Assembly (NCBI GenBank): GCA_964579845.1
Contig: CAZOHC010000006.1
Span: 1-44,688 of the forward strand
DNA from: an uncultured Gammaproteobacteria bacterium
GTDB taxonomy: Bacteria; Patescibacteriota; Microgenomatia; Levybacterales; UBA12049
Length of the DNA stretch: 44,688 nucleotides
Direction of reading: 5' to 3'
Shown here: piece by piece, positions 7,331 through 44,688 of the stretch
Layout of the letters: each line of letters begins with the position of its first letter
Numbering within the stretch: position 1 is the first letter of the stretch
Made by a program: the position numbers and the translations under genes
The notes under the pieces: model-generated
Databases searched by the model: none
What the model was told of the DNA's origin: nothing
What the model saw: only the letters and a program-made list of their open reading frames with translations

Positions 7331-7531
7331 TTCATGACTACGTAAGCTTTTGAACAGCCACTTCAACTTCTCACGTCACATACTGTAGCTCTGACAAGCG
7401 TACATTCTACAAATATCGACACCTTCCCCCAAATCCGACGTCACAGAATCGATTATAAGGGGTAAAAAAACAGTACGCTGACTAATATCCTATCTCTCGT
7501 TAAAAGCGTATTGACACTTCATCGCTCCCAA

Positions 7532-30225: not shown

Positions 30226-31533
30226 TTAGGACTTCCCTAAATTCTCTAAAAAGGCTTCGTTTGAGTCTGCCTGAGAGAGTTTCTCAATAAGAATACTCGT
30301 CCGTTCATTCTCACCAAGCATATCCATCATGCGACGCATTGTCACAATCTTCTTGTAATTCGCTTCTGAGAGCAGTAACTCTTCCTGTCTGGTTCCTGAC
30401 CGTTCGATGTTGATCGCAGGATAAATACGACGTTCAGCAAGTCTACGGTCAAGATGCAACTCCATATTACCGGTTCCTTTAAACTCTTCATAAATGAGGT
30501 CATCCATACGCGAACCGGTATCGACCAGTGCAGTTCCGATAATAGTTAAGGAACCGCCTTCCTGACAGTTGCGTGCAGCACCGAAGAATCGTTTTGCAGG
30601 CCAGAGTGCAGCAGGATCAAATCCTCCTGAAAGCGTTCGGCCGGACGGAGCAACCGAGAGATTATAAGCGCGAGCCAAACGGGTGATGGAATCAAGCAAT
30701 ACGATAACGTCTTTTCCTGCCTCAACCATGCGTTTTGCACGTTCCAGTGTGATTTCAGCAACTCTGGTCTGGTTTTCAGGCGGCTCATCAAAGTTACTTG
30801 CGACGACTTCACCTTTGACGGACATGGAGATATCAGTGACCTCTTCAGGTCGCTCACCGATCAAAGCAGCCATCAAGTGTGCTTTCGGGAAGTTCGCTGA
30901 GATCCCGGCCGCAATTTCTTTCAGAATCGTTGTTTTTCCGGCTTTCGGAGGTGAGACGATCATACCGCGCTGACCGAATCCGATCGGAGCAACGAGATCA
31001 ATAATTCTGGTAGAGATCGGTGTCTTTCCTGTCGCAAGCACAACCTGTTGTTTCGGATAGATCGCATTCAAGTCATCAAACCAAGGCCGACGCATTGAAT
31101 CCTCAGGACTGCCTCCGTTGACACCCTCGACCTTGAGCAAGCCGTAATATCGTTCTGTATCTTTCGGAGGTCTGGCGACACCCTCGACCAAATCACCGGG
31201 ACGCAGCATAAAGCGCCGGATCTGTGACTGAGAGATATAGATGTCACGACTTGACGGGATAAATTTCGGACGGAGAAACCCATGTCCTTCCTGCTGTACA
31301 TCAAGAATTCCTGAGACAGTCTCAGTCGGCTGTGCGTTGATCACCGGAGTCCCGTAGCTACTTTCTTCACGATAGTGGCGGGATACAGGTGCGGAAGCTT
31401 CTGTCGTCGTGTCAGGTGTGACAGGATCAACAGACGCAGTTGTTTCTTTCACCGGCTTTGATTTTACCGGTTTTTCTTCAGGAACACCGATAAAGTCATC
31501 GACTGATGGGGTTGTAGTTTTTTTTGTTGCCAT
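30226..31533 (-). CDS. rho: Transcription termination factor Rho
   Basis: 435 aa with an OB/RNA-binding part (GFLRPKFIPSSRDIYISQSQIRRFMLRPGDLVEG). It has Walker A GQRGMIVSPPKAGKTT, LIGERPEEVTD and a C-terminal RIYPAINIERSGTR. Confidence 0.95.
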   Translation of the reverse strand: MATKKTTTPSVDDFIGVPEEKPVKSKPVKETTASVDPVTPDTTTEASAPVSRHYREESSYGTPVINAQPTETVSGILDVQQEGHGFLRPKFIPSSRDIYISQSQIRRFMLRPGDLVEGVARPPKDTERYYGLLKVEGVNGGSPEDSMRRPWFDDLNAIYPKQQVVLATGKTPISTRIIDLVAPIGFGQRGMIVSPPKAGKTTILKEIAAGISANFPKAHLMAALIGERPEEVTDISMSVKGEVVASNFDEPPENQTRVAEITLERAKRMVEAGKDVIVLLDSITRLARAYNLSVAPSGRTLSGGFDPAALWPAKRFFGAARNCQEGGSLTIIGTALVDTGSRMDDLIYEEFKGTGNMELHLDRRLAERRIYPAINIERSGTRQEELLLSEANYKKIVTMRRMMDMLGENERTSILIEKLSQADSNEAFLENLGKS

Positions 31534-32689: not shown

Positions 32690-35551
32690 TTATCCCTCGA
32701 AAATATTCCCCTCTTCAAGCGTCTTTTTCGGTTCTCCTGGGTGATTAGTATCTTTTTTCTGCGCTTTCTCTTGCATCATGCTGTTGGGGTGCTGTCTCTT
32801 ATGAAACGGTTTTCCCGCATGTCCTGATGCATGGTGCGGTTTCTGCGCATGAGGCTGCTGTCCGTTGTCTCGTTCTGATGCATTCCGATGCTCAGATCCG
32901 GTGGAACTTCGAGGTTGTGCATGTTGCTTGGTATCATCGGAACCGGAATTTTTCTGCTCGTTATTTCTATCAGACTTCGCAAAGAATTTTTCCTGTGACA
33001 GGTCAACTGATGCCCTATCCCGTTTTTCTTCAGGTTGTGTCTGTGGCTTCTGTGCCGGCTGGGCGTGTTTCGGAGGCTGGTTTTCTTTTCGTTCGACCTG
33101 TTCAGGTGAATGTTGCTTCGGTTTCTCAAACGAGGACTGCTCACGCCGTTCCGGTGACGAAGGTCTATTCTCGTGCTTACGTTCCCCACCTTGTTGCTTA
33201 GACTGATTAGCTTGTCCTCCAGGCGGCTTTTGCCCGCCTGCTTGCGGTTTCTGCGTAGGAGGTTCGCTGTATACACCGGGAATCGAGATCAGGACATCTT
33301 CTTTCACAGGCTTCATATATCGCTCACGACTCATCTTCATCACTTTTTCCCGATTCTGGGTCACGGATCGAGGTAGTGGCAGCGTAAAGCACATAAACGG
33401 ACTGGAGGTCATCCCGTCAATCATCATCTTCAGAATAGCCTGGTAATTCCCGAGTGCGAGCACATCTTCTTCTTTGAAGCGTTCGACGAATTCTTTCGCC
33501 AGATACGGACTATCCCCTGCACCGACGAGGAAGGTCATAATCGTCCCGCAGTTCCCGAAGATCGCAAGCCTGACGTCTTCGTCGATCTGTCCCATATACT
33601 GGTTCGCCAGAATCAGATTAAGGCGGTATTTTCGAGCTTCAGAGAGAATTTTGATAAACGATGACGTCGCGAAATTCTGGAACTCATCCACATACAGGTA
33701 AAAATCCCGTCGCTCAGACTCCTCCTGAAACGCACGACTCATCGCAGCCAATTGCAGTTTTGTAATAATCATCGCACCCAGAAGTGCTGCGTTATCCTCA
33801 CCCAGTTTTCCCTGCGACAGGTTCAGCAGGAGAATTTTCCCCTCATCCATGACTTTGAGGAGGTCGAGTGATGACTTCGGATTTTTGATGATGTTCCGGA
33901 TGACGGTACTGGAGACGAACTGACCGACTTTGTTCTGAATCGGTGAGACTGCCTCTGTTCTCATCTTGTCTGAATACATGTTAAATTCATTTAACCAGAA
34001 ACTTTTCAGCACCGGATTAGTGAGGCGATCGAAGACTTTGGCACGGAATTTCGCATTCGCAAGCATCTCAGGCACCATAAGCAGCGTCGCATCAGGCATT
34101 TCGATGACTGATGCGAGTGTATTTCTCAGAATGTATTCAAGTCGTGGTCCCCAGGACGTTCCGTACAGTTTATTAAAAATCGCGACAATGCCTGAAACCA
34201 CGAGTTCTTTCTGCTCCGGATTATTCACTTCAAGCGGATTCAGAGAGAATGCATTCTGCGTGTCTGAGGGGTCAAGCGAGATAATGTCATTCACCCGGTA
34301 CGACGGAACATAATCCAACACCGTCTCACACAGATCACCATGCGGGTCGATAATACAGAAGCCCTCACGATTTCGCATATCATTAATCGCCATATTCGCG
34401 ATAAAAGTCGACTTCCCGGTACCTGTTTTTCCGATGACATAGAAATGGCGTCTCCTGTCGACTTTTTTAATCCCGAAGACCATCTGACGGTTTTTAAACT
34501 CCGTTCTCCCGAAGAAATTTACGTCTGCTTTCTGCTCATCAGTCATGAATTCAGCAACAGGCAAATTCTCCGGTGCATCCGTCAGAATCACCTTATGCCA
34601 GGCGATATTCGGAATCGTCGAGAGCTGCATGCCGGGGAAATGGAACAAAGTCGCCAGCTCCCGGACATTCAGAATCTGATGCGTCGGGGTAAAATACTGT
34701 GAACGATCCTGCATATGCTTGAGAAGCCGCTGTTTCTGCCAGAGAACAGGCTTACTCAGATGCAGACTGCTACCTGCAGGATTGTTAAATGACGAGAATG
34801 AATGCGCGATCTCGGTCATAAAATGATACGATCGCTGTTTCGTCGGACCGTTGGTCGCGATTCTGATGGCTGTTCTGAACCCGGCATAGGCGACTTTCTC
34901 GAGAATTTCTTTAGCTTTCGGATTCGGGTGTGCAGTACCGGCACTATCGACTGTTTTTTTATTCGCCTCATGTTCACCTGAACGCTGCCAGGAATCACCT
35001 ATAGGGTATAACAGGTACTGAATCACCGCGACATCTCCGGGCTGAGACTTCGAAAGAATACCGAGGATAGACGAGATCGGATCGACATCCTTAAACGTAT
35101 CGAAGGTTTTAATCGGCAGTAAACCGCCGGTGAGCTTCAGCTGGGTATAGGAGAGCGTATCTTTTTTCGCGAGCATCTCAGGCAGATAGTCTTTGACCCG
35201 TGAGATGAGTGCTTTCGGATACTGCGCGACGAGCTGACTCTCGATAAACGCCTGGTAGTCAGGCGGTACTACGAGGAAAAATCTGATCTGCTGATCGACA
35301 ACCCCGATCTCCAGGCTGATCGGAATCCCCCGCTTCAGAAAGACATAGTGCCTGAATCTGAGCTCGGTCAAACTGCTTAAAAACTGCACTGTCGATTCAG
35401 GTGTTTGTTCTCCGGTGCGTGACGTGCGTATTTCGAGGACAACATGTTTCGGTGACTCATACGCATCCTTAGTGGCTACCATATAGCTTACATAATAGTG
35501 TATCTGAGGCTTCGACGCAACGTGGACAATGCCAATGTGAGCCTGAAACAA
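32690..35551 (-). CDS. VirD4/TraD-like type IV coupling-protein-family ATPase with a long disordered Q/P/K/H-rich tail
   Basis: 953 aa with Walker A GKTGTGKST and Walker B-like FYLYVDEFQNF. The ARKYRLNLILANQY motif is present. The last ~230 aa are low complexity. ATG 35482 is an alternative start. Confidence 0.85.
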   Translation of the reverse strand: MFQAHIGIVHVASKPQIHYYVSYMVATKDAYESPKHVVLEIRTSRTGEQTPESTVQFLSSLTELRFRHYVFLKRGIPISLEIGVVDQQIRFFLVVPPDYQAFIESQLVAQYPKALISRVKDYLPEMLAKKDTLSYTQLKLTGGLLPIKTFDTFKDVDPISSILGILSKSQPGDVAVIQYLLYPIGDSWQRSGEHEANKKTVDSAGTAHPNPKAKEILEKVAYAGFRTAIRIATNGPTKQRSYHFMTEIAHSFSSFNNPAGSSLHLSKPVLWQKQRLLKHMQDRSQYFTPTHQILNVRELATLFHFPGMQLSTIPNIAWHKVILTDAPENLPVAEFMTDEQKADVNFFGRTEFKNRQMVFGIKKVDRRRHFYVIGKTGTGKSTFIANMAINDMRNREGFCIIDPHGDLCETVLDYVPSYRVNDIISLDPSDTQNAFSLNPLEVNNPEQKELVVSGIVAIFNKLYGTSWGPRLEYILRNTLASVIEMPDATLLMVPEMLANAKFRAKVFDRLTNPVLKSFWLNEFNMYSDKMRTEAVSPIQNKVGQFVSSTVIRNIIKNPKSSLDLLKVMDEGKILLLNLSQGKLGEDNAALLGAMIITKLQLAAMSRAFQEESERRDFYLYVDEFQNFATSSFIKILSEARKYRLNLILANQYMGQIDEDVRLAIFGNCGTIMTFLVGAGDSPYLAKEFVERFKEEDVLALGNYQAILKMMIDGMTSSPFMCFTLPLPRSVTQNREKVMKMSRERYMKPVKEDVLISIPGVYSEPPTQKPQAGGQKPPGGQANQSKQQGGERKHENRPSSPERREQSSFEKPKQHSPEQVERKENQPPKHAQPAQKPQTQPEEKRDRASVDLSQEKFFAKSDRNNEQKNSGSDDTKQHAQPRSSTGSEHRNASERDNGQQPHAQKPHHASGHAGKPFHKRQHPNSMMQEKAQKKDTNHPGEPKKTLEEGNIFEG

Positions 35552-35667
35552 GTCCTTGCCGGAGAGTAGATAGTAGAAAATAGAAGGTAGATCATCTACC
35601 CTCCTACTTCAACCCTCCACCCTGAATTCCCAATTCGATAATTAAACAATTAGTAATTAACCACCTA

Positions 35668-35696
35668 TTGACGTACTATAGGACATGTGCTATAAT
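35668..35696 (+). promoter_or_regulatory. P1: near-consensus sigma70 promoter
   Basis: TTGACG, a 17-nt spacer (tactataggacatgtgc), then TATAAT. Confidence 0.6.
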
Positions 35697-35780
35697 CCCC
35701 TTCATCTCATCAATATTGATGAGTTTTTGCCCGCCTGCATCGCATATGCGAAGCATTTCGGGCAGGTTCTCGACATTTTC

Positions 35781-35878
35781 GTCATCCTGAACGAAGTGTG
35801 ATTTATCCATTGAACATATCAATGAAATCACCCTGATTAGGGAAGGATCTCAAGATTCTTCGCTACACTCAGAATGAC
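35781..35878. repeat. R2: composite nested palindrome in reverse orientation relative to R9
   Basis: gtcatcctgaac..gtgtgatttatccattgaacatatcaatgaaatcaccctgattagggaaggatctcaagattcttcgctacactcagaatgac. Its reverse complement matches R9 almost base for base over ~70 nt. Confidence 0.8.
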
Positions 35879-35943
35879 AGTTTAGAACAGCACATTGAAA
35901 GTTACAGAGGAAAATTGTACTGAAATCTGATGATTCATACCAT

Positions 35944-35995
35944 CGGCTTTGGTTTCGGTCCTGCAACAAGCCTTGCAGGCCAGAATCCGGAGCCG
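35944..35995 (+). ncRNA. Conserved hairpin motif, copy 1 (UUCGGUCC..ACAAGCC..GGCCAGAA)
   Basis: Outer stem CGGCUUUGG/CCGGAGCCG and inner stem CCUGCA/UGCAGG. Both stems differ from copy 2 yet stay complementary. Confidence 0.5.
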
Positions 35996-36592
35996 AACGT
36001 GGTGGATCGTCAGGCCTTCCTGTTCATAGAACATGGGACGCTTCCGACCAGTTTGGCTTCGGCATAATCTCTTATCCAACTTAATTCAATTTGGAAGGAG
36101 GGGAAAATGCCGCGTGCACCGCCTAAAAAACGGTGAAACTTGGGTATATGAAGAATATACCCACTTAATATAGATCGCGGAGCCTTGGCTGACGGTGCCC
36201 CGGGCATAGCCTGCGGGATTCGGCCGATTGGCTCAAAATCTCACACTCATGCGAGTGTGAAAATTGTGTTTAACTGAAGTGAGGAGGGCGGATTGCGAAC
36301 GCTGATACCTCCGTAAGGAGGGAACGTTTTGCGCCTGGATGGGCGCTAATTTAGCCTCCCCCGTCACGTTTCCGGGGTTCCCCATATCGGGGAACCCCAG
36401 TTCTTACACCAGTACAACATACAGCATTGAAGCTGACAGCTTCGTTCCCCTATCGCTTGCGATAGATCGAACGATCCCAGGCTCTCAATGCCCAAGCTGG
36501 CTCGATTTATCGGCCACTCCTCTGTAACTTACTATCAACCCCCAAATCCCCCACTTTTGAAATTCCAAAACATTACCTATTTCTAAACTCGT

Positions 36593-36706
36593 GTCATGCT
36601 GATCAGAGTGTGATTTATCCATTGAACTTATCAATGAAATCACCCTGATTAGAGAAGAATCTTTTTTATAAGATCCTTCTCTCGATTTCATCGGGATCAG
36701 GATGAC
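36593..36706. repeat. R3: composite nested palindrome
   Basis: gtcatgctgatcagagtgtgatttatccattgaacttatcaatgaaatcaccctgattagagaagaatc..gatccttctc..gatcaggatgac. Confidence 0.75.
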
Positions 36707-36734
36707 AAAAAATATAATCCCAACTAGAATACCC

Positions 36735-36763
36735 TTGACATTTATTATAGGCTTTGCTATACT
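36735..36763 (+). promoter_or_regulatory. P2: near-consensus sigma70 promoter
   Basis: TTGACA, a 17-nt spacer (tttattataggctttgc), then TATACT. Confidence 0.6.
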
Positions 36764-36769
36764 TCTCCT

Positions 36770-37242
36770 CTTCTCGTCATTCTTGAGGAGATGCACGTTA
36801 AAAAGGGAGAGAGAAATTTGTAATAGATTGACCGGGACTATCCGTGTCAGGCATTAGCTTCGGTCCCACAACGAGCTTTGTGGGCCAGAAGCTGATGCTT
36901 GCCGGAAGGTTCCGCTAAGAGGATCTCACCTACTTGGTATATTGTTCGACAATATATGAGTATTTGAGCCCTTTCGGCAACGCATCAGCACTATATTAAG
37001 ACCGAATAATTTTCGGAAGATCGCTTGAACCAAGCGGTGACGGTGTTGCGAAAGGTGACACAATCATCGCTCCGAAAGGAGATAGTGATGTAGCAGTCAG
37101 TTGCTCCGGGAACGCCCGAAAAGACGCACACGCCCGAAAAAGCACCCGTTTTTACGGGTGCGCCACCCGAGTCACGACAGTGATATTCACTGCACGGCAA
37201 GGGATCAGGCAACATCGGGGAGGCACCAGTCGGCGCCTCCCC
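36770..37242 (+). ncRNA. Candidate structured noncoding transcript U2 (P2 to the hairpin at 37217-37242)
   Basis: No credible ORF. It contains motif copy 2, CTCC-gaaa-GGAG (37070-37081) and GCACCCGT-tttt-ACGGGTGC (37142-37161). It ends in the GC-rich hairpin GGGGAGGC..GCCTCCCC. Confidence 0.45.
36849..36900 (+). ncRNA. Conserved hairpin motif, copy 2
   Basis: Outer stem AGGCAUUAGC/GCUGAUGCUU and inner stem CCCACA/UGUGGG. It shares the UUCGGUCC, ACGAGCU and GGCCAGAA elements with copy 1. Confidence 0.5.
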
Positions 37243-37250
37243 ACTTTCTA
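37217..37250 (+). terminator. Terminator-like GC hairpin with a weak U tract
   Basis: GGGGAGGC-accagtcggc-GCCTCCCC followed by actttcta. Confidence 0.4.
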
Positions 37251-37443
37251 TTACAAATAATACGGCACGCAGACTAATGACATCATTCCATCATCGAAAT
37301 TGCGGTGATTCGAACGATACTGAGGCTAATTGTGCCCAATACAAATCGCGTTTACGCGACTCATCTCACTCCCTTTTTTCATTCGCTCCAAAATCCCCTG
37401 ATACTTGATACTTTCCCCTTTATACCTTTAAGGCTGAGTAGCC

Positions 37444-37472
37444 TTGACGAATTCCCTTACCGAGCGTATAAT
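37444..37472 (+). promoter_or_regulatory. P3: consensus sigma70 promoter
   Basis: TTGACG, a 17-nt spacer (aattcccttaccgagcg), then TATAAT. Confidence 0.6.
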
Positions 37473-37478
37473 CCCGAT

Positions 37479-38306
37479 ACGACATTTACTTGTACGATAT
37501 TTGATTCGTATCTCATGTAAAATGCTCGCCTATTTTGTATTCTGATGTACTGCACAATGCGGTATGCAGAAGATCTTTGACAAGGTACAGAGGAACATTG
37601 AGAGATACCGGAGGGTATTTTCCTTCCCTGCATAAAACACCAGCCAAGACGTTCGGTATACGTGAAAATGCAAAGGTCAAAATGCAAAAGTATGGTCATC
37701 CTGAATTGATTTTCAGGATCAACTTAAACTTTTTATCTGAATTTTTGCCTTTTACCTTTTAAAATTTGAATTCACCGTATCACCGTAGGTGTTGGCCGGT
37801 GTTTTGTGATGGGGATCGATACGAGCCTCCAACTCACTCCCGAAATCAGTAGAAGTCCCCGTACTCTACGGTTAGAGGAATTCGTGACTCGTCACGAAAC
37901 ATCGGCGCCACTCTCCTAGGTGGAGAGTTCGTGCCCGGAGGGCAATATGACAGGTTCGCTCACTGTCGATAGGAGGTCAATCTTTATGAACGATCCACCC
38001 TCGACTGAAGCGCCGTCTGAAGCGATCGCCTAAGAGCTTTTAGTTTGCTCTGCTCAGGCCGATCGTTTCACCGGAGGGTGTAGCATTACACCCTCCACTT
38101 ACTTTGAATTCTAACCGCGAAGCCCGGTGTGCTGTGACCCCCACTTGCAGGCACACCCGCTTTGCATTCCGGAAGGAAACATCATCCATCCATCCCGATG
38201 GTGTTTTCTTCCATCCCGAGTTTGAAGTGGTGGCCTACCTTCTCTCCCCCACCACTTCAGCTCATGCAGGAAGACCTGTTCAACAGGTCTTCCTGCCCTT
38301 TTTCAT
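37479..38306 (+). ncRNA. Candidate ~830-nt noncoding (or micro-ORF leader) transcript U3, from P3 to a strong terminator
   Basis: It is bounded by P3 and the 14-bp terminator at 38266. Only a 15-codon ORF has an RBS. Helices include GGAGGGTGT-agcatt-ACACCCTCC and GAAGTGGTGG..CCACCACTTC. Confidence 0.5.
37695..37723. repeat. R10: minimal outer-arm-only version of the palindrome family
   Basis: GTCATCCTGAA-ttgatt-TTCAGGATCAAC. Confidence 0.5.
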
Positions 38307-38310
38307 TTTC
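38266..38310 (+). terminator. Strong rho-independent terminator
   Basis: GCAGGAAGACCTGT-tca-ACAGGTCTTCCTGC followed by CCTTTTTCATTTTC. Confidence 0.8.
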
Positions 38311-38494
38311 TCTCACGATACTGCACGACGAGTGCCTCAATCACCTTCACCATTTTGCGGTGAATCGTGCCTGACGCATGTACGCCTGCCATTCGGCAGA
38401 CACGTTTTGTGTTGTATTCCGGCTCGTTTTTTAACGGCCACTCTGTACCTTGTTTTTTCTATCCCCCCTTCAAGCCTGACTTCTCCCCCTCATT

Positions 38495-38586
38495 GTCATT
38501 CTGAGGTGTCTACCGAAGAATCCCTTCTGTATGAGACCCCTGTCTGCCGGCAGGCAAGGCTTCATCCTTTCAGTCTTCAGGATGAC
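38495..38586. repeat. R4: degenerate palindrome copy with an internal insertion
   Basis: gtcattctgaggtgtctaccgaagaatccc...cagtcttcaggatgac. Confidence 0.6.
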
Positions 38587-38845
38587 AGATTAGTTGTGGG
38601 TCTACTTCTGTGAAAATTCTTGTTTTAACGCACAAAATCCGTGAAAAATATTGAGTAAACGCACGAAGAGCTTTCAGGTATGGTACGACGACAATCGGTA
38701 TCGAAGCGCGTATGGTGAGGAGTCATACATAGCTCGTTAAATGCCGTTCATCGTTACCTCTTATCGATACGAGCTTCCTAACCGTAAGACACATCTACTA
38801 AGATCCTCATCTTCTAGTAACGATATCTCTTCCTAATGATGAGTC

Positions 38846-38874
38846 TTGACAAGACCTATAGGATATGCTAGTAT
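38846..38874 (+). promoter_or_regulatory. P4: sigma70-like promoter of the same family, upstream of the ribozyme and small-gene operon
   Basis: TTGACA, a 17-nt spacer (agacctataggatatgc), then TAGTAT. It shares the internal CTATAGG element with P1. Confidence 0.45.
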
Positions 38875-39070
38875 AACTCAACAATTCTGCCCGGATGGAT
38901 AAACACCTCAGGGCTGAAGAAGTACTTTAACAATTCAGCTCGAAACACTCACCGCATCCTTTCTGATGCATACATTCCCTATTTATGACCGGAGACAAGA
39001 GTCTAACTCAGAGCTATTTTGCGTTCTGAGCAACCGGACTCTTATCTTCTGTCGTAAGTAAGAAGTACAT

Positions 39071-39130
39071 GTCATTCTGAACAACCGTGAAGAATCCCTA
39101 TATGAGATCCTTCGCTCCGCTCAGGATGAC
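39071..39130. repeat. R5: compact palindrome copy
   Basis: GTCATTCTGA-acaaccgt-GAAGAATC-cctatatga-GATCCTTC-gctccgc-TCAGGATGAC. Confidence 0.8.
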
Positions 39131-39479
39131 AAATTTCTTTGACCGAGTCATCACGTCAAACGCGACAGGGACTCGATCTGTTTAATCTGGGATTCTGCTC
39201 TGCAGAAGTTCTTTAATAAGGCGAATACGTATAAAAGGAGTTCAAAGGGCAAAAGGCAAAAGTCAAAACGCCTAATACAGCCTTAGGGCTGCTTGTGGTG
39301 CAAAATGATGGATGCGTGAGAATATTGAGCTTCGTAACAGAGATATCTCATAATCGACAGCGGTTAAGGGGGTATGGTTTCATTCAAATGGATTTGAAAC
39401 GATACTCTTTATCCGCTGTTGATATACAAAAGTAACTTTTCATTTTTTACTCCCTTCCCTATCATACTTATATCGCCTT

Positions 39480-39538
39480 ACTGTCTACGCCTCATCGGCG
39501 TACTGATGAGTCCCGCTTTTAAGCAAGGACGAAACAGT
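39480..39538 (+). ncRNA. Hammerhead ribozyme A (type III, compact); predicted cleavage after C39485
   Basis: ACUGU-C|UACGCC-ucauc-GGCGUA-CUGAUGA-GUCC..GGAC-GAA-ACAGU. All invariant core positions are present and stems I, II and III pair. Confidence 0.85.
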
Positions 39539-39597
39539 GTTCTTTAACAAGGCATCGAGATCATCTAAACGGCTCAGAGCCGTGTGGTGATCGAAGA

Positions 39598-39631
39598 GTT
39601 AGAAAAATTCAGAATTTTTCTAACCGTTTTA
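39598..39631 (+). terminator. AT-rich 12-bp hairpin plus a short U tract (attenuator or terminator-like)
   Basis: GTTAGAAAAATT-cag-AATTTTTCTAAC followed by cgtttta. Confidence 0.4.
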
Positions 39632-39766
39632 ACAGATTAGCCCTTTATGAGCAGATGGTCCCTAAGGGGGGTTGGTTCGGATCCACTTCAGGCATCCGTA
39701 CGAACCTCTTTAAGGGCCATTTGCCCTTCCCCGCAGCAATGTCGCTCGGTAAAGGAAAGGGTAAAA

Positions 39767-39922
39767 ATGATCTGGAAAATCTTTCGTCATTTTCTTTCCG
39801 CCATCATTCGGTGGTGGGAGAAGAAGACCGCGCTGCCAAGCTGGGAGCGTGAGAACGCTCCATTCTACAGCGGATATGATCCGCTAGATCGGTACAGGAG
39901 GAAGGAAAATGGGAACTGTTAA
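39767..39922 (+). CDS. Small hypothetical protein (51 aa)
   Basis: ATG preceded by AAAGGAAAGGG. The product is MIWKIFRHFLSAIIRWWEKK... It overlaps the next ORF by 14 nt. Confidence 0.35.
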   Translation: MIWKIFRHFLSAIIRWWEKKTALPSWERENAPFYSGYDPLDRYRRKENGNC

Positions 39923-40247
39923 AAAATTTCCACTCGACAGAGTCCGTCCGCCGGACTTTTACGCGGAAGATTACCCGCGGGGTCCAGCACGGATAAAACC
40001 TATCCCAGGCTCTCTCCCCGAGTTCTCTCCGGGAGACAGGTTCCTCCTCGAGCGTGATGATGAGAGTAATGACCTTTTTGAAGGTCAGACGCTCACCGTC
40101 CTACAGGAGTTTCTTAACCTCGTCGTGTACGAGGTCGAGGAGTTTCCTGGTGTAAAGCTCTACCTCGAGAGGTGGGAGTTTGATATGCTCCGCCTCAATC
40201 AGGTGATGATCTACCTACCTCCGGCAATCGAGCCGGGGGTGAAGTAG
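39909..40247 (+). CDS. Hypothetical protein (112 aa)
   Basis: AGGAGG lies 7 nt upstream of the ATG. No family was recognised. Confidence 0.6.
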   Translation: MGTVKKFPLDRVRPPDFYAEDYPRGPARIKPIPGSLPEFSPGDRFLLERDDESNDLFEGQTLTVLQEFLNLVVYEVEEFPGVKLYLERWEFDMLRLNQVMIYLPPAIEPGVK

Positions 40248-40298
40248 AACAGTAGGCAACTGTGCCTGCTGAACGAAACAAATCCCAAGGAGGGATAA

Positions 40299-40514
40299 AT
40301 GATTTTCTTGCTCATTCCGCTGGCTGCCCTCTTCGCGGTGTGGGTCTACTGTGACCTGCATCCGACCCAGGCAGTCATGCCCTGCCGCGTTCGGCGGGCA
40401 GACTGGGACCTGGGAGTAAGGCAGAATGCTCTGCTCCCCGAGGGAGCGGTGAATACTGTCATCGGCGAGAGCCGGTGGTACATACGCCCGAAGCGGGCGG
40501 ACTTCGCCCGCTAA
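40299..40514 (+). CDS. Small membrane protein (71 aa)
   Basis: AAGGAGGG RBS and the N-terminal TM helix MIFLLIPLAALFAVWVY. Confidence 0.55.
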   Translation: MIFLLIPLAALFAVWVYCDLHPTQAVMPCRVRRADWDLGVRQNALLPEGAVNTVIGESRWYIRPKRADFAR

Positions 40515-40662
40515 TAATCTGTTAATAATGTCTTCGGTGCACCGCACCGCTATCTGATCCGTTTTTGTAATGGATTATGAAGGCATGTCGGTGCTGCCGA
40601 TAGATGAACTACATAACGTAGTTCCGAGATGCCTTCAATCCCGGCAGGTCTTCGTACCTGCC

Positions 40663-40808
40663 GGGCTTATCGTCAGCTCAAAGCTGGCCTGATGAGTCCA
40701 TGCTCAAAACTCTGTCATTCTGAAGCCAACTGCTGAAGAATCTCTATATGAGATCCTTCCCTACGCTCCAGGATAACGAAAATTTGAGCTGAGGACGAAA
40801 TACGTTCT
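40663..40808 (+). ncRNA. Hammerhead ribozyme B (type III, long stem II); predicted cleavage after C40671
   Basis: GGGCUUAU-C|GUCAGCU-caa-AGCUGGC-CUGAUGA-GUCC..[R6]..GGAC-GAA-AUACGUUC. The core is intact. Stem I has one G.U pair and stem III has one mismatch. Confidence 0.7.
40714..40777. repeat. R6: palindrome copy forming the distal stem II of hammerhead B
   Basis: gtcattctgaagccaactgctgaagaatctctatatgagatccttccctacgctccaggataac. Confidence 0.75.
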
Positions 40809-40972
40809 TCAGAGATGAATTCAACTGAATTCTCCTTTGGAGAAGTTCTTTAAAAGAGAGAAATGATAACGAGGCATCGGCAGCAAGTTCCGCCACCACG
40901 GAATTTCCTGCCGATGCTTGGTAAGTCGGTCACCTTCTCCGGTGACTCGGAGAAAAAGGGAGGAACAAAACC

Positions 40973-41461
40973 ATGTTGGTGGATACTTCTATTTTAACCG
41001 CTCAATTCAACACTATGCTCGAGAATAACGAGCTAGCTGAGGGCTCCGCCCTCTTCTCGTTCATCGATGAACTTGAGAAGGCGGAGGAAACGCTCCGCGT
41101 CAGGAGCATTCACATTCCGTTCCTTCGGGAACGCATGCTGGAGCTCCGAGAAGCAGGAGAGCGCATCTCCGAAGCGTTCGGTGGTGAACTGAGGGATACT
41201 CTAGATATCCCCCTGAGTGATATCGACGAATATCCTGATGAAGGAGATGATGACTTGCTGTCGCAAGTCGATGACGTCATCCTCCACGGCAAGCTCGATG
41301 AGGCGTACATTCTTCAGAAGAAGATGAACGCCAGAAAGTCGCGCATCAAGGTCGACCTCGACCAACTGGCCAACCAGGACAAAGGCCGAGCGATTATCGA
41401 AGAGCTGCTGGCACATGCCCGGGCGTTTTTATCGCGCACGGCAAAGCGCTACGCAGCGTAG
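40973..41461 (+). CDS. Acidic helical hypothetical protein (162 aa)
   Basis: AGGGAGGA RBS lies 8 nt upstream of the ATG. The ORF is followed by the hairpin at 41471-41500. Confidence 0.65.
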   Translation: MLVDTSILTAQFNTMLENNELAEGSALFSFIDELEKAEETLRVRSIHIPFLRERMLELREAGERISEAFGGELRDTLDIPLSDIDEYPDEGDDDLLSQVDDVILHGKLDEAYILQKKMNARKSRIKVDLDQLANQDKGRAIIEELLAHARAFLSRTAKRYAA

Positions 41462-41470
41462 AATTTATCT

Positions 41471-41500
41471 GTGTGCGGTTGTCTCCGGACAGCCGCACAC
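41471..41500 (+). terminator. 13-bp hairpin with a UCCG loop after ORF 40973-41461 (3'-end stabiliser or terminator)
   Basis: GTGTGCGGTTGTC-tccg-GACAGCCGCACAC. The following sequence is only moderately U-rich. Confidence 0.4.
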
Positions 41501-41514
41501 ATTCATTTCTCTCA

Positions 41515-41655
41515 TTCTGTTTACGCCTCATCGGCGTACTGATGAGTCCATACTCAAACTCTGTCATTCTGAAGCCAACGGCTGAAGAATCTCTCTACAA
41601 GAGGTCCTTCCCTACGCTCCAGGATGACTAGTGAGGAGCTGAGGACGAAACAGAA
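41515..41655 (+). ncRNA. Hammerhead ribozyme C (type III, long stem II); predicted cleavage after U41521
   Basis: UUCUGU-U|UACGCC-ucauc-GGCGUA-CUGAUGA-GUCC..[R7]..GGAC-GAA-ACAGAA. Confidence 0.8.
41563..41628. repeat. R7: palindrome copy forming the distal stem II of hammerhead C
   Basis: gtcattctgaagccaacggctgaagaatctctctacaagaggtccttccctacgctccaggatgac. Confidence 0.75.
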
Positions 41656-41874
41656 GTTCTTTGACAAGGCATAGTCGAGGTCGCCTTTGGCGACCGAAGT
41701 AACTTTTCAGGAAGTACTTACTATACATTCTAAAAAGTTCCAATTTTTATAAACACCTTCTTTCCTTTTCCCGAGGACGATACAGGTGCCGGTGATTGGG
41801 TATCGTGGAAAAATCTTCGTCCACGATGCCTGTTCTCCGGCACACTGGTCCGGGAAATCAAAAGGAGGAAAATC

Positions 41875-42234
41875 GTGGTTAAGGTTCATGTACTTAACGC
41901 GCTTGACGCCATCGATCAATTGGAGGAAGAATTTCTTCTCAACGATGAGGACGAAGCAGCGGCGAGAGAAAGGCTCGAGCGAGAGCTTGAGGAACAAATG
42001 GCCGAGGACGTAGTCCAGAAGGCTGTAATAGCCTTCCAAAAGGGATTCACAGTCTCGTGCGATAAGCACGAGAGCAGTGTGTCCCCTGAGGGACGCTTTT
42101 CTCTCAATCATCCGGATGAAGATTGCCATCTGTGCAATTGGATTCTGATGAAGTGGAGACAGCGGCAAGACGAAGAAAGAAAGAGGTTTTACGAAAATCG
42201 CAACTTTCTTCGCCGAAACGAACTTGACTACTGA
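41875..42234 (+). CDS. Hypothetical protein (119 aa), acidic N-terminus with Cys/His cluster
   Basis: GTG start 6 nt after AAGGAGG. The stop overlaps the RBS of the next gene. Confidence 0.6.
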   Translation: MVKVHVLNALDAIDQLEEEFLLNDEDEAAARERLERELEEQMAEDVVQKAVIAFQKGFTVSCDKHESSVSPEGRFSLNHPDEDCHLCNWILMKWRQRQDEERKRFYENRNFLRRNELDY

Positions 42235-42245
42235 GGAGGTCTTCC

Positions 42246-42650
42246 ATGAAGCTTCTTTTCCTTGTACTCTTGTTTGCGTCCACACTCGTCTCCCCCGTTC
42301 ATGCGGAGGAGTACGCCCGGCCAGGATCGACGAAAGGTCAGGTGACGACTGATATCGTGTCACCTGAAGCCTTTCAGAAAGACATGAACGCTCGCATCAC
42401 CGGTCGTGGGGAATTCATTTTCCCCGATGGCGCGAACCAAGCAATTTTCGTCGACAAGACATGTACCAGCACGCTGAACATGTCTGTTCCATTCTTTAAG
42501 TGGAACGAGGCGTTGGGCGATCATGAAGTACTCGCAATTCACTTCAACTACAAGGTGGAGTTGTATGGCGAGTATCGGAGCGATTACGCTCGAGAGGGAT
42601 TGTACCTCTATGGCGTATGCGAGGGGGTTTTCAACCTCGCATACGAGTAA
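42246..42650 (+). CDS. Secreted hypothetical protein (134 aa)
   Basis: GAGGAGG RBS and the signal peptide MKLLFLVLLFASTLVSPVHA. Confidence 0.65.
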   Translation: MKLLFLVLLFASTLVSPVHAEEYARPGSTKGQVTTDIVSPEAFQKDMNARITGRGEFIFPDGANQAIFVDKTCTSTLNMSVPFFKWNEALGDHEVLAIHFNYKVELYGEYRSDYAREGLYLYGVCEGVFNLAYE

Positions 42651-42660
42651 AGGAGGAACT

Positions 42661-42987
42661 GTGCTCTACACTGCAGGATGGGCAATAATTTGGGTCCTTT
42701 TGATCCTATTTATTGGCCTCCTACTCCGATTTACTTGGTCTGTGGCGAAAGTTTACGTTGCCATGGGGATGGGGTATCTGAGGCAGATACAATCGCCACC
42801 AACATCATACTCCTCCTCTAGCTGGCCAACCACCGTTGCAGAGACGGAAATCGATCAATACCCGGAGGAAGAAGTCATCGACGAAGATCTGTGGGAAGAT
42901 TTGGGGATAGGCCCTGAAATCGAAGTAACCGGCATCATTCAGATTGCCGATTACGCTAACGACTGGAGTGAAAGGAGACTTACGTGA
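42661..42987 (+). CDS. Small membrane protein with an acidic tail ending NDWSERRLT
   Basis: GTG 42661 follows AGGAGG. The TM helix is WAIIWVLLILFIGLLLRF. The stop overlaps the next start (GTGA). The ORF track start (42523) overlaps the upstream gene. Confidence 0.55.
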   Translation: MLYTAGWAIIWVLLILFIGLLLRFTWSVAKVYVAMGMGYLRQIQSPPTSYSSSSWPTTVAETEIDQYPEEEVIDEDLWEDLGIGPEIEVTGIIQIADYANDWSERRLT

Positions 42988-43184
42988 ATGTTCTGAAACT
43001 CTTGTTCGATCTCCTCTCCGGAACAGGTGTGTTCCGAAGGGGAATCGAGTATCCGGTGGAAACGCCGATAATACTTGAAAATGGTGAGAAATGGTATGCC
43101 TCCGATGAATTCGGAGGAGGCGTCAGTTACTTCTCAAACAACGACCGCAAGGTTGTTTATCCGGGATCAGCTGATCCCGTCTAG
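42984..43184 (+). CDS. Hypothetical protein (66 aa)
   Basis: GTG start 6 nt after AAAGGAG, translationally coupled to the preceding ORF. Confidence 0.5.
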   Translation: MNVLKLLFDLLSGTGVFRRGIEYPVETPIILENGEKWYASDEFGGGVSYFSNNDRKVVYPGSADPV

Positions 43185-43264
43185 CGTTCGCTATAGTGAA
43201 CAGGAGGCGGTATCGGTGAAGTCACCGGAACCTTTGCTGCTGAATCTTCGCAGCACGACATGCC

Positions 43265-43405
43265 TTCTGTTCTTCCGATGAAATCGGAACTGATGAGTCC
43301 ATGCTCATTCCTGTCATTCTGAAGCCAATGGCTGAAGAATCTCTCTAAAAGAGATCCTTCATTACACTCAGGATGACTAGTGAGGAGCTGAGGACGAAAA
43401 CAAAA
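43265..43405 (+). ncRNA. Hammerhead ribozyme D (type III, long stem II); predicted cleavage after C43272
   Basis: UUCUGUU-C|UUCCGAU-gaa-AUCGGAA-CUGAUGA-GUCC..[R8]..GGAC-GAA-AACAAAA. The core is intact and stem III has one A/C mismatch. Confidence 0.7.
43313..43377. repeat. R8: palindrome copy forming the distal stem II of hammerhead D
   Basis: gtcattctgaagccaatggctgaagaatctctctaaaagagatccttcattacactcaggatgac. Confidence 0.75.
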
Positions 43406-43408
43406 TCT

Positions 43409-43521
43409 GTCATTCTGATCCTGATAAAATCGGGAGAAGAATCTCTACATGAGATCCTTCCCTAATCAGGGTGATTTCATTGATATGTTCAATGGATAAA
43501 TCACACTCTGTTCAGGATGAC
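43409..43521. repeat. R9: composite nested palindrome, inverted partner of R2
   Basis: gtcattctgatcctgataaaatcgggagaagaatctctacatgagatccttccctaatcagggtgatttcattgatatgttcaatggataaatcacactctgttcaggatgac. Confidence 0.8.
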
Positions 43522-43728
43522 AAAGTTCTTTAAAATAGAAAAGTATTCGGTGCCGGCAGGAGCGCACTGTACAACGGTAGACGAGAGATTAAATCGCACG
43601 AGGTATTTATTTTTTGGGCAGGAAAATAAATTTGATACTTTTGCCTTTTGATTTTTAACGTTTGCACTTGTTATGGTACGCTCCTGTCGGCATTCGAGCG
43701 CTGACACGAGCTTTCTTCGGAGGTATAG

Positions 43729-43869
43729 ATGCTGGAAGCATTGAAGCTTCTGGTCTTAGGACTCATCGCTTTCGGGATTTTGGCATTGCTGATCGTCTAT
43801 GTCATTGTCCCGATTCTCAGTCGTTGCATCGATTTCGATGACCCAGATGACTGGAGTGAGATCCGCTAG
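43729..43869 (+). CDS. Micro membrane protein (46 aa) ending DDWSEIR
   Basis: GGAGG lies 6 nt upstream of the ATG. The product is MLEALKLLVLGLIAFGILALLIVYVIVPILSRCIDFDDPDDWSEIR. It is below the ORF-track length cutoff. Confidence 0.4.
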   Translation: MLEALKLLVLGLIAFGILALLIVYVIVPILSRCIDFDDPDDWSEIR

Positions 43870-43888
43870 TGAAAGGAGCGCAGCGGTC

Positions 43889-44041
43889 ATGCTTCGTCGG
43901 TTCTTCCACGAAATCGTGGAGACATTCGTGCGGGTTTACCTCGCAACCCATCCTGAGATCACGCTAGATCCGGAATGGGAAGACACTCGTCCTGCCGAAA
44001 CAGGCAGGAGAAAGGAACAGCTCCATGGCGGAAAAAGCTAA
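43889..44041 (+). CDS. Small hypothetical protein (50 aa)
   Basis: The ATG lies downstream of AAAGGAG. It is an internal start of track ORF 43799-44041. Confidence 0.35.
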   Translation: MLRRFFHEIVETFVRVYLATHPEITLDPEWEDTRPAETGRRKEQLHGGKS

Positions 44042-44150
44042 GACGATTGTCGGACTCGTGGGAATCATCGTCATTCTGGCGGTTGTTGCCATGTTAACGT
44101 TTCTCGGTTGGTGCACGGAAGTGTCCATCGAGGACGCTCAGTCGCTGTAA
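44025..44150 (+). CDS. Micro membrane protein (41 aa)
   Basis: The product is MAEKAKTIVGLVGIIVILAVVAMLTFLGWCTEVSIEDAQSL. It overlaps the preceding ORF by 17 nt. Confidence 0.35.
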   Translation: MAEKAKTIVGLVGIIVILAVVAMLTFLGWCTEVSIEDAQSL

Positions 44151-44162
44151 GGAGTGAACCAT

Positions 44163-44435
44163 ATGCATCTTGTCCTTGACCAAGACATCGAGGCCATTGT
44201 GGCCGTCACCAATGAGGATCCTGAAATCAGGGCTCGTGTAGGTGAAACAGGCAGGCTCCTGGCCGGAGGGGAGCTCTATGAGGTTTCCTCCTACGACGAC
44301 TGGAGCATTTGTGCTCGTTATATCACACCCGGACGTGAACTTCGGTCTGGTCGGAATATTCCGATCAATACCATCGTGTACGTTTCTGCCGAAACCCTTG
44401 CTTCAGCTACTACAGCCTTCAGGTTCATAGAATGA
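44163..44435 (+). CDS. Hypothetical protein (90 aa)
   Basis: AAGGAG lies 8 nt upstream of ATG 44163. The track lists GTG 44154. Confidence 0.55.
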   Translation: MHLVLDQDIEAIVAVTNEDPEIRARVGETGRLLAGGELYEVSSYDDWSICARYITPGRELRSGRNIPINTIVYVSAETLASATTAFRFIE

Positions 44436-44521
44436 AAATTCTAATTGCAATCCTAGGCTGGAAAGGTGGAGCAGGCCATTTTATCTTCATTCTACTCTTC
44501 TTTCTAGTGTACGCACTGTAA
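44432..44521 (+). CDS. Micro hydrophobic peptide (29 aa)
   Basis: ATGA start/stop overlap with the preceding ORF. The product is MKILIAILGWKGGAGHFIFILLFFLVYAL. Confidence 0.3.
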   Translation: MKILIAILGWKGGAGHFIFILLFFLVYAL

Positions 44522-44540
44522 GACGAGTCAGAGTGAACCA

Positions 44541-44572
44541 AAGGGGGTACCCGTCGGGTACCCCCTTTTCTC
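44541..44572 (+). terminator. Strong rho-independent terminator closing the small-gene operon
   Basis: AAGGGGGTACCC-gtc-GGGTACCCCCTT followed by TTCTC. Confidence 0.85.
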
Positions 44573-44655
44573 ATACAATTCAGCCTCGATTATTATAAAA
44601 CGAAATAATTAAGGTGCTTGCGCTCGCTACATGGCTCTGACCCATTAAAGCGAGC

Positions 44656-44684
44656 TTGACATATCCTATAATATTTGATATAAT
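44656..44684 (+). promoter_or_regulatory. P5: consensus sigma70 promoter of the same family at the window edge
   Basis: TTGACA, a 17-nt spacer (tatcctataatatttga), then TATAAT. Confidence 0.6.
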
Positions 44685-44688
44685 ACAC

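Follow-up and report, generated by a model that had tools for sequence, protein, structure and literature searches.

What is made from a stretch of chromosome in which strong promoters follow one another at short intervals and hardly any gene can be called? The question is raised by a 44,688-nucleotide (nt) stretch of DNA (GCA_964579845.1, contig CAZOHC010000006.1, positions 1-44,688 of the forward strand; the window), and mainly by its positions 35600-38900, where three promoter-driven units, U1, U2 and U3, lie in tandem. Between 35551 and ~39647, the longest open reading frame (ORF) has 169 amino acids (aa). A first-pass annotation had suggested three large structured RNAs. It was right about structured, promoter-driven units, but these are not three different RNAs: U1-U3 are paralogous copies of one scaffold. 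That annotation had not mentioned boxA-like motifs, long-range closing helices or short ORFs led by a Shine-Dalgarno sequence, nor that U1-U3 open a longer array of cassettes whose small genes are separated by hammerheads. The favoured answer is that they are lineage-specific cassettes in the style of ribosomal RNA (rRNA) operons, with Nus-dependent antitermination and a leader-trailer helix, and that they probably yield functional structured RNA. The architecture itself (promoters, boxA-like motif, helices P1 and P2, conserved modules) is very likely real. The case is built on promoters, motifs, helices, covariation and conservation in ten genomes.

Promoters and architecture of the three units

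The units were compared with nine loci for which a homologue of the coupling ATPase encoded next to U1 was found with its genomic context (L006, L007, L008, L014, L015, L016, L019, L020 and L021). The ten loci, window included, belong to a single clade. In all nine related loci, a co-directional unit array diverges from the orthologous VirD4-like gene, with the layout and promoter type of the window. L006, for instance, whose neighbour protein is 85% identical, has promoters at 7471, 6420, 5162 and 4259 and three U-type units, matching the window. The labels P1 and P2 are used for promoters as well as helices, and the two are told apart below by those words. The promoters are as follows.

35668-35696, plus strand: promoter P1, TTGACG-17-TATAAT, TG-extended, CTATAGG in the spacer; same position in L006, L007, L008, L015 and L016
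36735-36763, plus strand: promoter P2, TTGACA-17-TATACT; 74% identity to the promoter/5' arm region of L008
37444-37472, plus strand: promoter P3, TTGACG-17-TATAAT, without CTATAGG
38846-38874, plus strand: promoter P4, TTGACA-17-TAGTAT, spacer CCTATAGGATATG; heads the hammerhead/gene cassette array; 70% identity to L006 4296-4175
44656-44684, plus strand: promoter P5, TTGACA-17-TATAAT

A scan and an independent count confirmed the four promoters of the unit region, with their 17-nt spacers, at the sites first proposed, as well as promoter P5 at 44656. The spacings of 1067, 709 and 1402 nt agree with the earlier figures. A shared spacer motif, CTATAGG or TTATAGG, had also been claimed; it is present in promoters P1, P2, P4 and P5 (CTATAAT) and absent from promoter P3, and it starts 2-5 nt after the -35 element instead of about 6 nt. 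Five near-consensus sigma-70 sites (at least 10 of 12 matches, 17-nt spacer) lie on the plus strand of 35600-38900. Among 1000 dinucleotide shuffles, the mean was 0.08, and none reached five. Nine sites with at least 10/12 matches were counted on both strands of the whole window, six of them in 35.6-44.7 kb. The promoters of all nine related loci are of the type TTGACA-nnTCCTATAGGATATG-TATAgT with a palindromic spacer.

The spacer palindrome TCCTATAGGA(TATG) occurs at 35674-35690, 36741-36757, 38852-38868 and 44662-44678 and recurs in all related loci (L014-L021 promoters), where promoters with palindromic spacers also head DUF11/CLIPPER genes. It may serve as an operator for a shared regulator or be a promoter element peculiar to the lineage. 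A tandem direct repeat, GTGAAAAT...TAAACGCAC, occupies 38610-38633 and 38641-38664 on the plus strand, ~200 nt upstream of promoter P4, and L006 and L007 have similar repeats ahead of the corresponding promoter. The repeat is a candidate binding site for a regulator.

All units share one order of elements. The promoter is followed by small hairpin(s), a boxA-like motif, the 5' arms of helices P1 and P2 and a covarying long hairpin. After these come a hypervariable interior with a Shine-Dalgarno (SD) sequence and an ORF of 1-28 codons, a GC-rich terminator-like hairpin, the P2 3' arm, a CCCAA module, the P1 3' arm and a C-rich tail. U1 and U2 align at both ends. The boxA consensus is GYTCTTTAANA (PMC5725501), and the E. 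coli rrn boxA is ugcucuuuaacaa (PMC2724277). In the arrays, the P1 arm directly follows a motif that reads GTTCTTTAACAAGG, GTTCTTTGACAAGG or CTTTGAAAAGG; the array boxA is also written GTTCTTTRAMAAGG, or GUUCUUUAACAAGG in a non-degenerate version. The features are listed below, in which R1 is a covariance model of the 5' module and MFE stands for minimum free energy.

~35703-36535, plus strand: U1
35706-35728, plus strand: weak leader hairpin CTCATCAatatTGATGAG with a TTTTT U-run, ~4-26 nt after the predicted start of promoter P1; compensatory changes in L006, L007, L008 and L015
35890-35900, plus strand: boxA-like motif GCACATTGAAA, read from the sequence; degenerate, 3 mismatches to GYTCTTTAANA
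35894-35911, plus strand: helix P1 5' arm, pairs with 36518-36535 (18 nt, 89%) and closes the MFE fold
35915-35922, plus strand: helix P2 5' arm TTGTACTG, pairs with 36410-36417; 8 bp with its cognate, 6 bp or fewer with every non-cognate partner
35945-35994, plus strand: 5' long hairpin GGCUUUGGUUUCGGUCCUGCAAC...UUGCAGGCCAGAAUCCGGAGCC, R1 score 104.6 bits
36097-36136, plus strand: SD GGAAGGAGG and 9-codon ORF MPRAPPKKR
36374-36398, plus strand: GC-rich terminator-like hairpin GGGGUUCCCCauaucGGGGAACCCC just before the P2 3' arm; same element and place in every U-type unit
36410-36417, plus strand: helix P2 3' arm CAGTACAA
36490-36496, plus strand: 3' module GCCCAAG, then a small variable hairpin
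36518-36535, plus strand: helix P1 3' arm
36536-36600, plus strand: C-rich, G-poor tail, read from the sequence

~36770-37378, plus strand: U2
36793-36814, plus strand: boxA-like motif GCACGTTAAAA overlapping the helix P1 5' arm AAAAAGGGAGAGAGA, which pairs with 37364-37378 and closes the MFE fold
36816-36827, plus strand: helix P2 5' arm ATTTGTAATAGA, pairs with 37247-37258 (12 bp)
36850-36899, plus strand: 5' long hairpin, paralogue of the U1 hairpin with compensatory changes, R1 score 102.4 bits
37076-37093, plus strand: SD AAGGAG and ATG-TAG start-stop
37217-37242, plus strand: GC-rich terminator-like hairpin
37247-37258, plus strand: helix P2 3' arm TCTATTACAAAT
37364-37378, plus strand: helix P1 3' arm TCTCACTCCCTTTTT

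~37479-38454, plus strand: U3
37572-37592, plus strand: boxA-like motif GATCTTTGACA overlapping the helix P1 5' arm GACAAGGTACAGAG, which pairs with 38441-38454 (14 bp)
37599-37605, plus strand: helix P2 5' arm TGAGAGA, pairs with 38309-38315
37610-37830, plus strand: long imperfect hairpin, ~220 nt
37937-38033, plus strand: SD GGAGG and 28-codon ORF MTGSLTVDRRSIFMNDPPSTEAPSEAIA
38266-38296, plus strand: GC-rich hairpin (14 bp, 8 GC) with T-run, positional homologue of the U1 and U2 GC hairpins
38309-38315, plus strand: helix P2 3' arm TCTCTCA
38441-38454, plus strand: helix P1 3' arm CTCTGTACCTTGTT

Helix P1 bounds the units. In U1, its core AAGTTACAGAGGA (35899) and 36518-36530 are reverse complements, and GUUAC/GUAAC in this helix is a compensatory variant of the GGUAC/GUACC of relatives. 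In U3, the core AAGGTACAGAG (37582) pairs with 38441-38451. The U2 arms AAAAAGGGAGAGAGA/TCTCACTCCCTTTTT are wholly unlike those of U1 and U3 in sequence, with the pairing retained. The same was seen across units generally, as P1 arms can be wholly different and yet each complementary to its own partner (GGTACAGAGGA, GTTACAGAGGA, GAGATAGAGGA, AAAAAGGGAGAGAGA, GGTATTTGGA, ACTCGGAT). Ten mini-units were aligned with MAFFT; pairing holds in 82% of the cells of helix P1 and drops to 41-58% if the partner strand is shifted. Both sides are changed in six of the 15 pairs of this helix, and the covariation score lies above 499 of 500 shuffles. Best-duplex energy did not discriminate between positions after boxA and random anchors (-16 to -27 vs -17 +/- 4 kcal/mol), and this test was replaced by contiguous-helix statistics. 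Of the boxA-like anchors, 38% have a contiguous helix of at least 11 bp starting within 3-14 nt; among anchors placed at random in these sequences, 4% do (Fisher p 1.8e-12).

Helix P2 begins 3-8 nt inside helix P1, and its 3' partner directly follows the GC-rich hairpin. For its test, the anchors were the offset from helix P1 (5' strand) and the conserved motif ATAC.GC (3' strand); complementarity was not used. Cognate helices have a mean of 8.9 bp and non-cognate ones 5.7 bp (permutation p 5e-5), and every divergent unit pairs best with its own partner. The P2 pairing accounts for both AAATTTGTAATAGA and TCTATTACAAAT being conserved motifs. Compensatory changes were also found in 15 of the 24 pairs of the 5' long hairpin (7 units). 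Model R1 detected two copies on which it had not been trained (U2 of L006 and one in L014) and nothing elsewhere in the window, the module being confined to cassette arrays. The helix arms covary across related loci, and the conserved secondary structure that had been expected in homologues is present, with compensatory changes. The ~100-nt module between the 3' arms of helices P2 and P1 contains CCCAA, invariant in 7 units, followed by a small hairpin of variable sequence that was read by eye. RNAalifold gave no consensus structure for this module, in which MAFFT had set the small hairpins out of register.

The units fold far more stably than chance. Their MFE z-scores against dinucleotide shuffles are -11.5 (U1), -11.1 (U2) and -15.8 (U3), compared to +1.9 and -1.4 for two coding controls, and the dense helices described at first reading are thereby borne out. 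Helix P1 closes the MFE structures of U1, U2 and U3, and self-comparison revealed long local hairpins in the units. Relative to their own shuffles, the plus strands of U1/U2/U3 are stabilised by -74/-73/-119 kcal/mol and the minus strands by -50/-63/-90 kcal/mol.

The end of U3 had been placed at a textbook terminator at 38266. The hairpin and T-run are there, but the element is internal to the U3 architecture, with the conserved P2 and P1 partner strands downstream at 38309-38315 and 38441-38454; its counterparts in U1 and U2 have no good U-run. Each unit is followed by a C-rich, G-poor tail on the plus strand (36536-36600, 37379-37440 and 38455-38492, e.g., CAACCCCCAAATCCCCCAC), whose sequence is rut-like, resembling Rho-utilisation (rut) sites. 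The leader hairpin at 35706-35728 may attenuate transcription close to the promoter or stabilise the 5' end. In the U3 leader, before boxA, a degenerate hammerhead (CTGATGT...CAGAAG) was considered and rejected as an active ribozyme, having a broken core and no Rfam match.

Hammerhead-separated cassettes and genomic context

Downstream of promoter P4 (38846), small orphan genes are separated by four type III hammerheads. No Pfam or PHROG match was obtained for these genes.

38922-38932, plus strand: boxA GTACTTTAACA, 1 mismatch, preceded by the hairpin UUCUGCCC...GGGCUGAA; hairpin and boxA leader also in L006, L007 and L015
39208-39218, plus strand: perfect boxA GTTCTTTAATA; the following arm AAGGCGAAT... 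pairs with ...ATCGCCTT just before hammerhead 1
39478-39540, plus strand: hammerhead 1, type III, 41.9 bits, E 1.5e-6; perfect boxA at 39539-39549 immediately after
40664-40806, plus strand: hammerhead, type III, 20.6 bits; stem III weak by eye
41514-41656, plus strand: hammerhead, type III, 33.5 bits
43265-43405, plus strand: hammerhead, type III, 21.6 bits

Four perfect matches to the boxA consensus (39208, 39539, 40845 and 43525) and two with one mismatch (38922 and 41656) are found in the window, all on the plus strand within 38922-43535. In the related loci, every perfect match is likewise on the array strand. A hairpin usually precedes boxA. Hairpins of the boxB type lie directly 5' of it at 38887-38915, 39193-39207 and 40830-44, and leader hairpins are present in U1 and U2 too; in sequence they do not resemble E. 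coli boxB, nor would they be expected to.

All four hammerheads score below the RF00008 gathering score (48.5 bits), the three low scores being due to long stem II insertions. They have the CUGAUGA...GAAA core, the GUH triplet and three stems, and alignments show an intact core for those at 39478 and 41514. Equivalent hammerheads were detected by Rfam search in L006, L015 and L020 and by pattern search in all arrays (L006, L007, L014-L016, L019-L021). Each is directly preceded by the P1 3' arm of the upstream cassette and directly followed by boxA. The design of boxA and closing helix therefore also brackets the protein-coding cassettes, between 39.2 and 43.5 kb; for instance, GAGAGAAATGA (40856) pairs with TCATTTCTCTC (41503), and the next hammerhead starts at 41514. 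To evaluate the pairing in 27 cassettes, boxA served as anchor for the 5' segment and the next CUGAUGAG for the 3' segment. Between boxA and the next hammerhead, cognate helices average 7.6 bp vs 4.7 bp for non-cognate ones, a difference reached in none of 50,000 permutations. Hence, helix P1 with boxA forms a generic cassette scaffold in the clade. The U-type units add helix P2, the 5' hairpin and the 3' module, and their own promoters replace hammerheads as separators. That the hammerheads circularise the cassettes is speculation, and stem III at 40664 looks weak.

Two kinds of repeated hairpin accompany the cassettes. One is a ~70-nt hairpin with conserved internal-loop sequences, GCGGUUAAGGG...CUCUUUAUCCGC, at 39353-39423 and ~39650-39725 (plus strand) and in L007 at ~1000-1035 and 1630-1670 (minus strand). 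Its loop holds a second boxA-like CUCUUUA. The 91-aa ORF at 39647 may be mis-called, since its start is overlapped by the second copy. The other is a repeat resembling a miniature inverted-repeat transposable element (MITE), GTCATTCTGA...GAAGAATC...GATCCTTC...TCAGGATGAC, present in both orientations in the window. Three copies of this ~90-nt element lie inside hammerhead stem II. Those at 35778-35880, 36577-36707 and ~38493-38590 are all outside the units bounded by helix P1.

35778-35880, minus strand: MITE-like insert in the U1 leader, between leader hairpin and boxA; 96% inverted copy of 43450-43524; absent from L015
36577-36707, minus strand: MITE-like copy
~38493-38590, 39060-39135, 40712-40775, 41561-41627, 43311-43377 and 43405-43524: further MITE-like copies

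The host chromosome is of the candidate phyla radiation (CPR)/Patescibacteria type and Microgenomates-like. The window encodes Rho, a LysM-M23 peptidase, DUF11/CLIPPER proteins, LytR_C, very large orphan proteins and a tRNA. Its long genes are intact under code 11, and UGA recoding was rejected on that ground. The best homologues of the coupling ATPase (60-85% identity) come from Microgenomates/Levybacteria-like metagenome bins.

363-5000, plus strand: 1545-aa protein of unusual architecture, with two N-terminal phage-integrase SAM-like domains and an S74 (endosialidase chaperone) peptidase domain
10964: tRNA, the only Rfam match at gathering score in the whole window
30226-31533: rho gene, two genes left of the units
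32690-35551, minus strand: DUF87/TrwB/TraG-type coupling ATPase (VirD4-like), immediate left neighbour of the units

Gene cargo differs between relatives in the fashion of a cassette array. When the window was compared with its relatives by BLAST, promoters and 5' modules aligned and nothing else; the interiors are unalignable, L006 included, and full-length alignment of positional orthologues failed there too. Scans of genome and metagenome contigs with the VirD4-like protein returned only distant loci (36-49% identity), in which the RNA units are absent. A 1.3-kb Logan contig from SRR7082976 (L005) is 100% identical to 39710-40998, a part of the cassette array. The pattern TTTRANAAGGTACAGAGGA had two matches in viral contigs, L017 and L018; the one in L017 lies inside a recombinase gene and was dismissed as chance.

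Proposed mechanism and rival explanations

In the favoured reading, a near-consensus sigma-70 promoter would fire, and the nascent RNA would present the small leader hairpin(s) and the boxA-like element. This element would recruit NusB/NusE-NusA-NusG, by which the long untranslated RNA would be shielded from Rho and the 5' arms tethered to the polymerase. The 3' arms would emerge 0.5-0.9 kb later and pair to form helix P1, the leader-trailer closing helix, with helix P2 nested in it. Helix P2 would close on the GC-rich hairpin, with CCCAA and the small-hairpin module between helices P2 and P1. The closed RNA might then be trimmed at helix P1, as pre-rRNA is by RNase III, or just be stabilised. 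The product would in effect be a highly structured RNA of 0.6-0.9 kb with a hypervariable interior. Downstream, the protein-coding cassettes would use the same packaging, with hammerheads replacing separate promoters as separators. Transcription, Nus binding, Rho resistance, processing and a role of the RNA are what this scheme predicts.

Several observations weigh against this scheme. The minus strand likewise folds far better than its shuffles. Counts of G-U and A-C mismatches in the closing helices (6 vs 10) are uninformative, so that strand-specific selection at the RNA level is not proven by that count. The covariation counts do not represent independent events, since several units are paralogous and the ten loci come from one clade. 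The boxA-like motifs of U1, U2 and U3 are degenerate, with 3, 2 and 2 mismatches to a consensus that is gamma-proteobacterial and may not be that of the host lineage; orthologous units are nearer to it (GTTCTTTGAAA in L008, GCTCTTTGAAA in L015, and GTTCTTTAACA). The unit interiors are not conserved, which is not the usual state of a functional ornate RNA and agrees with a scaffold whose cargo is disposable or evolves fast. Lastly, the units may be mRNAs first, given an SD and start codon in every unit and ORFs of 28-60 codons in relatives.

This last point is developed by the main rival, according to which the short peptide is the product. Helices P1 and P2, boxA and the GC hairpin would stabilise, insulate or terminate a small-ORF mRNA, and U1 and U2 would have decayed to 9 codons and 1 codon. 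A strong, unpaired SD does stand 5-7 nt before an ATG in each unit: GGAGG-N5-ATG at 36107, AAGGAG-N6-ATG-TAG at 37088 and GGAGG-N5-ATG at 37947, followed by 9, 1 and 28 codons. The first-pass annotation had denied any credible or ribosome-binding-site-led ORF, and these three very short ones escape that verdict. It stands for the long ORFs, which have neither such a site nor a family match. The longest, of 169 aa, starts at TTG (38104-38613) and crosses a repeat as well as the 38266 hairpin; the next has 103 aa and lies on the minus strand. Pfam had no match for any of the ten ORFs in the unit region with 62 aa or more, nor did PHROG for the 169-aa ORF. Counterparts in L008, L015, L016, L020 and L021 are SD-led ORFs of 28-60 codons followed by the GC hairpin, some of them called as genes, and downstream the scaffold of boxA and helix P1 clearly encloses real protein genes.

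The peptides themselves speak against being the product. They are of low complexity, without signal peptide or membrane segment, and those of relatives are acidic and Pro/Thr/Gly-rich. No two loci have detectably similar peptides, even where the neighbour protein is 85% identical. MPRAPPKKR weakly resembles MSRGPPRKR... of L007 (E 0.049), and the 28-codon ORF of U3 has no homologue among the related loci. In two genomes the ORF is a mere start-stop (U2 of the window, U1 of L007), with promoter, helices and modules intact. Conserved RNA elements make up most of a unit and the ORF at most 13% of its length. As no peptide similarity was found and the ORFs are tiny, the units were treated as effectively noncoding structured RNAs, and the earlier noncoding call is upheld by homologues without a conserved reading frame. 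A small-ORF mRNA is therefore a possible but unlikely account of the units.

It is improbable that the region is merely decaying and non-functional, made of gene-cassette remnants with surviving promoters. Such decay would explain the degenerate boxA of U1 and U2, the MITE in the U1 leader and the tiny or start-stop ORFs. It would not explain promoters kept at 11/12 matches, nor helices P1 and P2, the 5' hairpin, the GC hairpin and CCCAA, all of which persist, amid saturated surroundings, in three paralogues and in orthologues of at least five genomes.

It is still less probable that the arms act as DNA, as terminal inverted repeats or recombination sites of MITE- or integron-like cassettes, with RNA structure as a by-product. 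The cassette-like variation of cargo between relatives, the genuine MITE-like repeats in the spacers, the good folding of both strands and the mostly perfect Watson-Crick pairing of the closing helices are all in its favour. The arms are, nonetheless, specific to each cassette, so that no single recombinase has a site in common, and they lie 250-1900 nt apart, unlike compact attC sites. Their places are set by RNA signals, right after boxA and right before a hammerhead. The covariation in helix P2 and in the 5' hairpin is of the kind seen in RNA helices, and the MITE copies identified fall outside the P1-bounded units. The window has no integron integrase; its only integrase-like matches are the SAM-like domains of the 1545-aa protein 30 kb away.

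Membership of, or kinship with, the known ornate RNAs (GOLLD, ROOL, HEARO/omega RNA, OLE, raiA) is hardly credible and largely refuted, for all the size of 0.6-0.9 kb, the extreme predicted structure and the variable, island-like location, because none of 4227 Rfam 15 models matches the units in the window or the related loci, at gathering score or E up to 10, no IscB/TnpB, phage or tRNA is associated, and the interior is not conserved among close relatives.

The rRNA-operon-style cassette remains the favoured reading. A stronger version, in which the whole array is packaged in rRNA style across the clade (boxA/Nus tethering and nested leader-trailer helices, with promoters or hammerheads separating the units) and U1-U3 are more than mRNAs, namely new abundant, processed structured RNAs with a function of their own (e.g., a ribonucleoprotein scaffold, or a partner or cargo of the secretion ATPase), is rather unlikely. 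If the favoured reading is true, Nus antitermination and a leader-trailer helix have been reused in tandem for non-ribosomal RNAs and small-gene mRNAs in a major uncultured radiation, and the roles of boxA extend beyond rRNA, suhB-type autoregulation and CRISPR arrays. The placement of hammerheads between a 3' arm and the next boxA would suggest that a polycistronic precursor is cut into end-protected units. The U-type scaffold would be a new RNA family, missing from Rfam, that can be modelled and searched. The locus is also among the few where CPR transcription signals can be read: boxA, rut-like tails and a promoter consensus whose spacer is palindromic.

Comparison with known systems

The novelty lies in known elements put to an undescribed combination and use, together with an undescribed RNA scaffold family. 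The literature yielded no paper linking hammerheads or large structured RNAs to CPR, nor one on this arrangement, although prior art is not fully excluded. An Rfam search of 35000-44688 with E up to 10 gave only the sub-threshold hammerheads and noise, with nothing credible inside 35668-38881, and the related loci behaved alike. SSU, LSU, 5S and tRNA models had no match in 35000-44688.

The large ornate RNAs (GOLLD, ROOL, HEARO, OLE) share with the units a length of several hundred nt, many GC-rich capped helices and a location in variable regions, and they too had no known function at discovery. They differ in that conservation here is restricted to the ends, around a hypervariable interior with an SD and short ORF. 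GOLLD and ROOL usually occur with prophages or tRNAs, and HEARO with IscB/IS200-605. No phage, IscB, TnpB or tRNA association of this kind was seen at the units; the window proteins contain no phage, IscB or TnpB domains, and blastn of 35600-39600 against phage records showed no similarity. The likeness to GOLLD/ROOL/HEARO raised by the first-pass annotation is accordingly abandoned.

Integron attC sites are compact (57-141 bp), share R''/R' core sites and are served by the IntI integrase. The arms described here are 250-1900 nt apart and differ per cassette, and no IntI is encoded in the window.

Intercistronic hammerheads have reportedly been described in bacterial and prophage operons, by Perreault et al. 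in 2011 and Jimenez et al. in 2011. Those downstream of promoter P4 are similar in being of type III, with an intact core, between co-directional small genes. In contrast, none lies inside U1-U3, each is flanked by a P1 3' arm and a boxA, and three of the four carry the ~90-nt repeat in stem II.

boxA is also said to protect CRISPR arrays from Rho (Stringer et al., in 2020). In the suhB 5' untranslated region, it protects a non-rRNA transcript from Rho (PMC5725501). As in both cases, boxA stands here at the 5' end of a long, un- or poorly translated transcript that would otherwise be a Rho target. Those loci have one boxA and no closing helix, whereas a boxA-like motif heads every cassette of the array and is coupled to a long-range helix.

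The rRNA operon is the closest in design. In pre-rRNA, boxB/boxA/boxC and leader-trailer helices flank the product RNA (PMC10250234). In the operon, it is 16S and 23S that the leader-trailer helices enclose. Like the operon, the units have a strong promoter and, after a hairpin, a motif of the boxA type (GTTCTTTAACAAGG here, TGCTCTTTAACAA in rrn), they lie in tandem on one strand, and the strand after boxA pairs beyond the 3' end of a long untranslated structured RNA. Unlike it, they enclose an RNA that is neither rRNA nor tRNA and has an unconserved interior, and each unit has its own promoter. They also have a nested helix P2 that closes on a terminator-like hairpin, an SD with a tiny ORF, and a packaging that is reused for small protein genes. 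On this comparison, the units are best described as resembling pre-rRNA transcription and processing units, rather than as members of rRNA operons or of any Rfam family.

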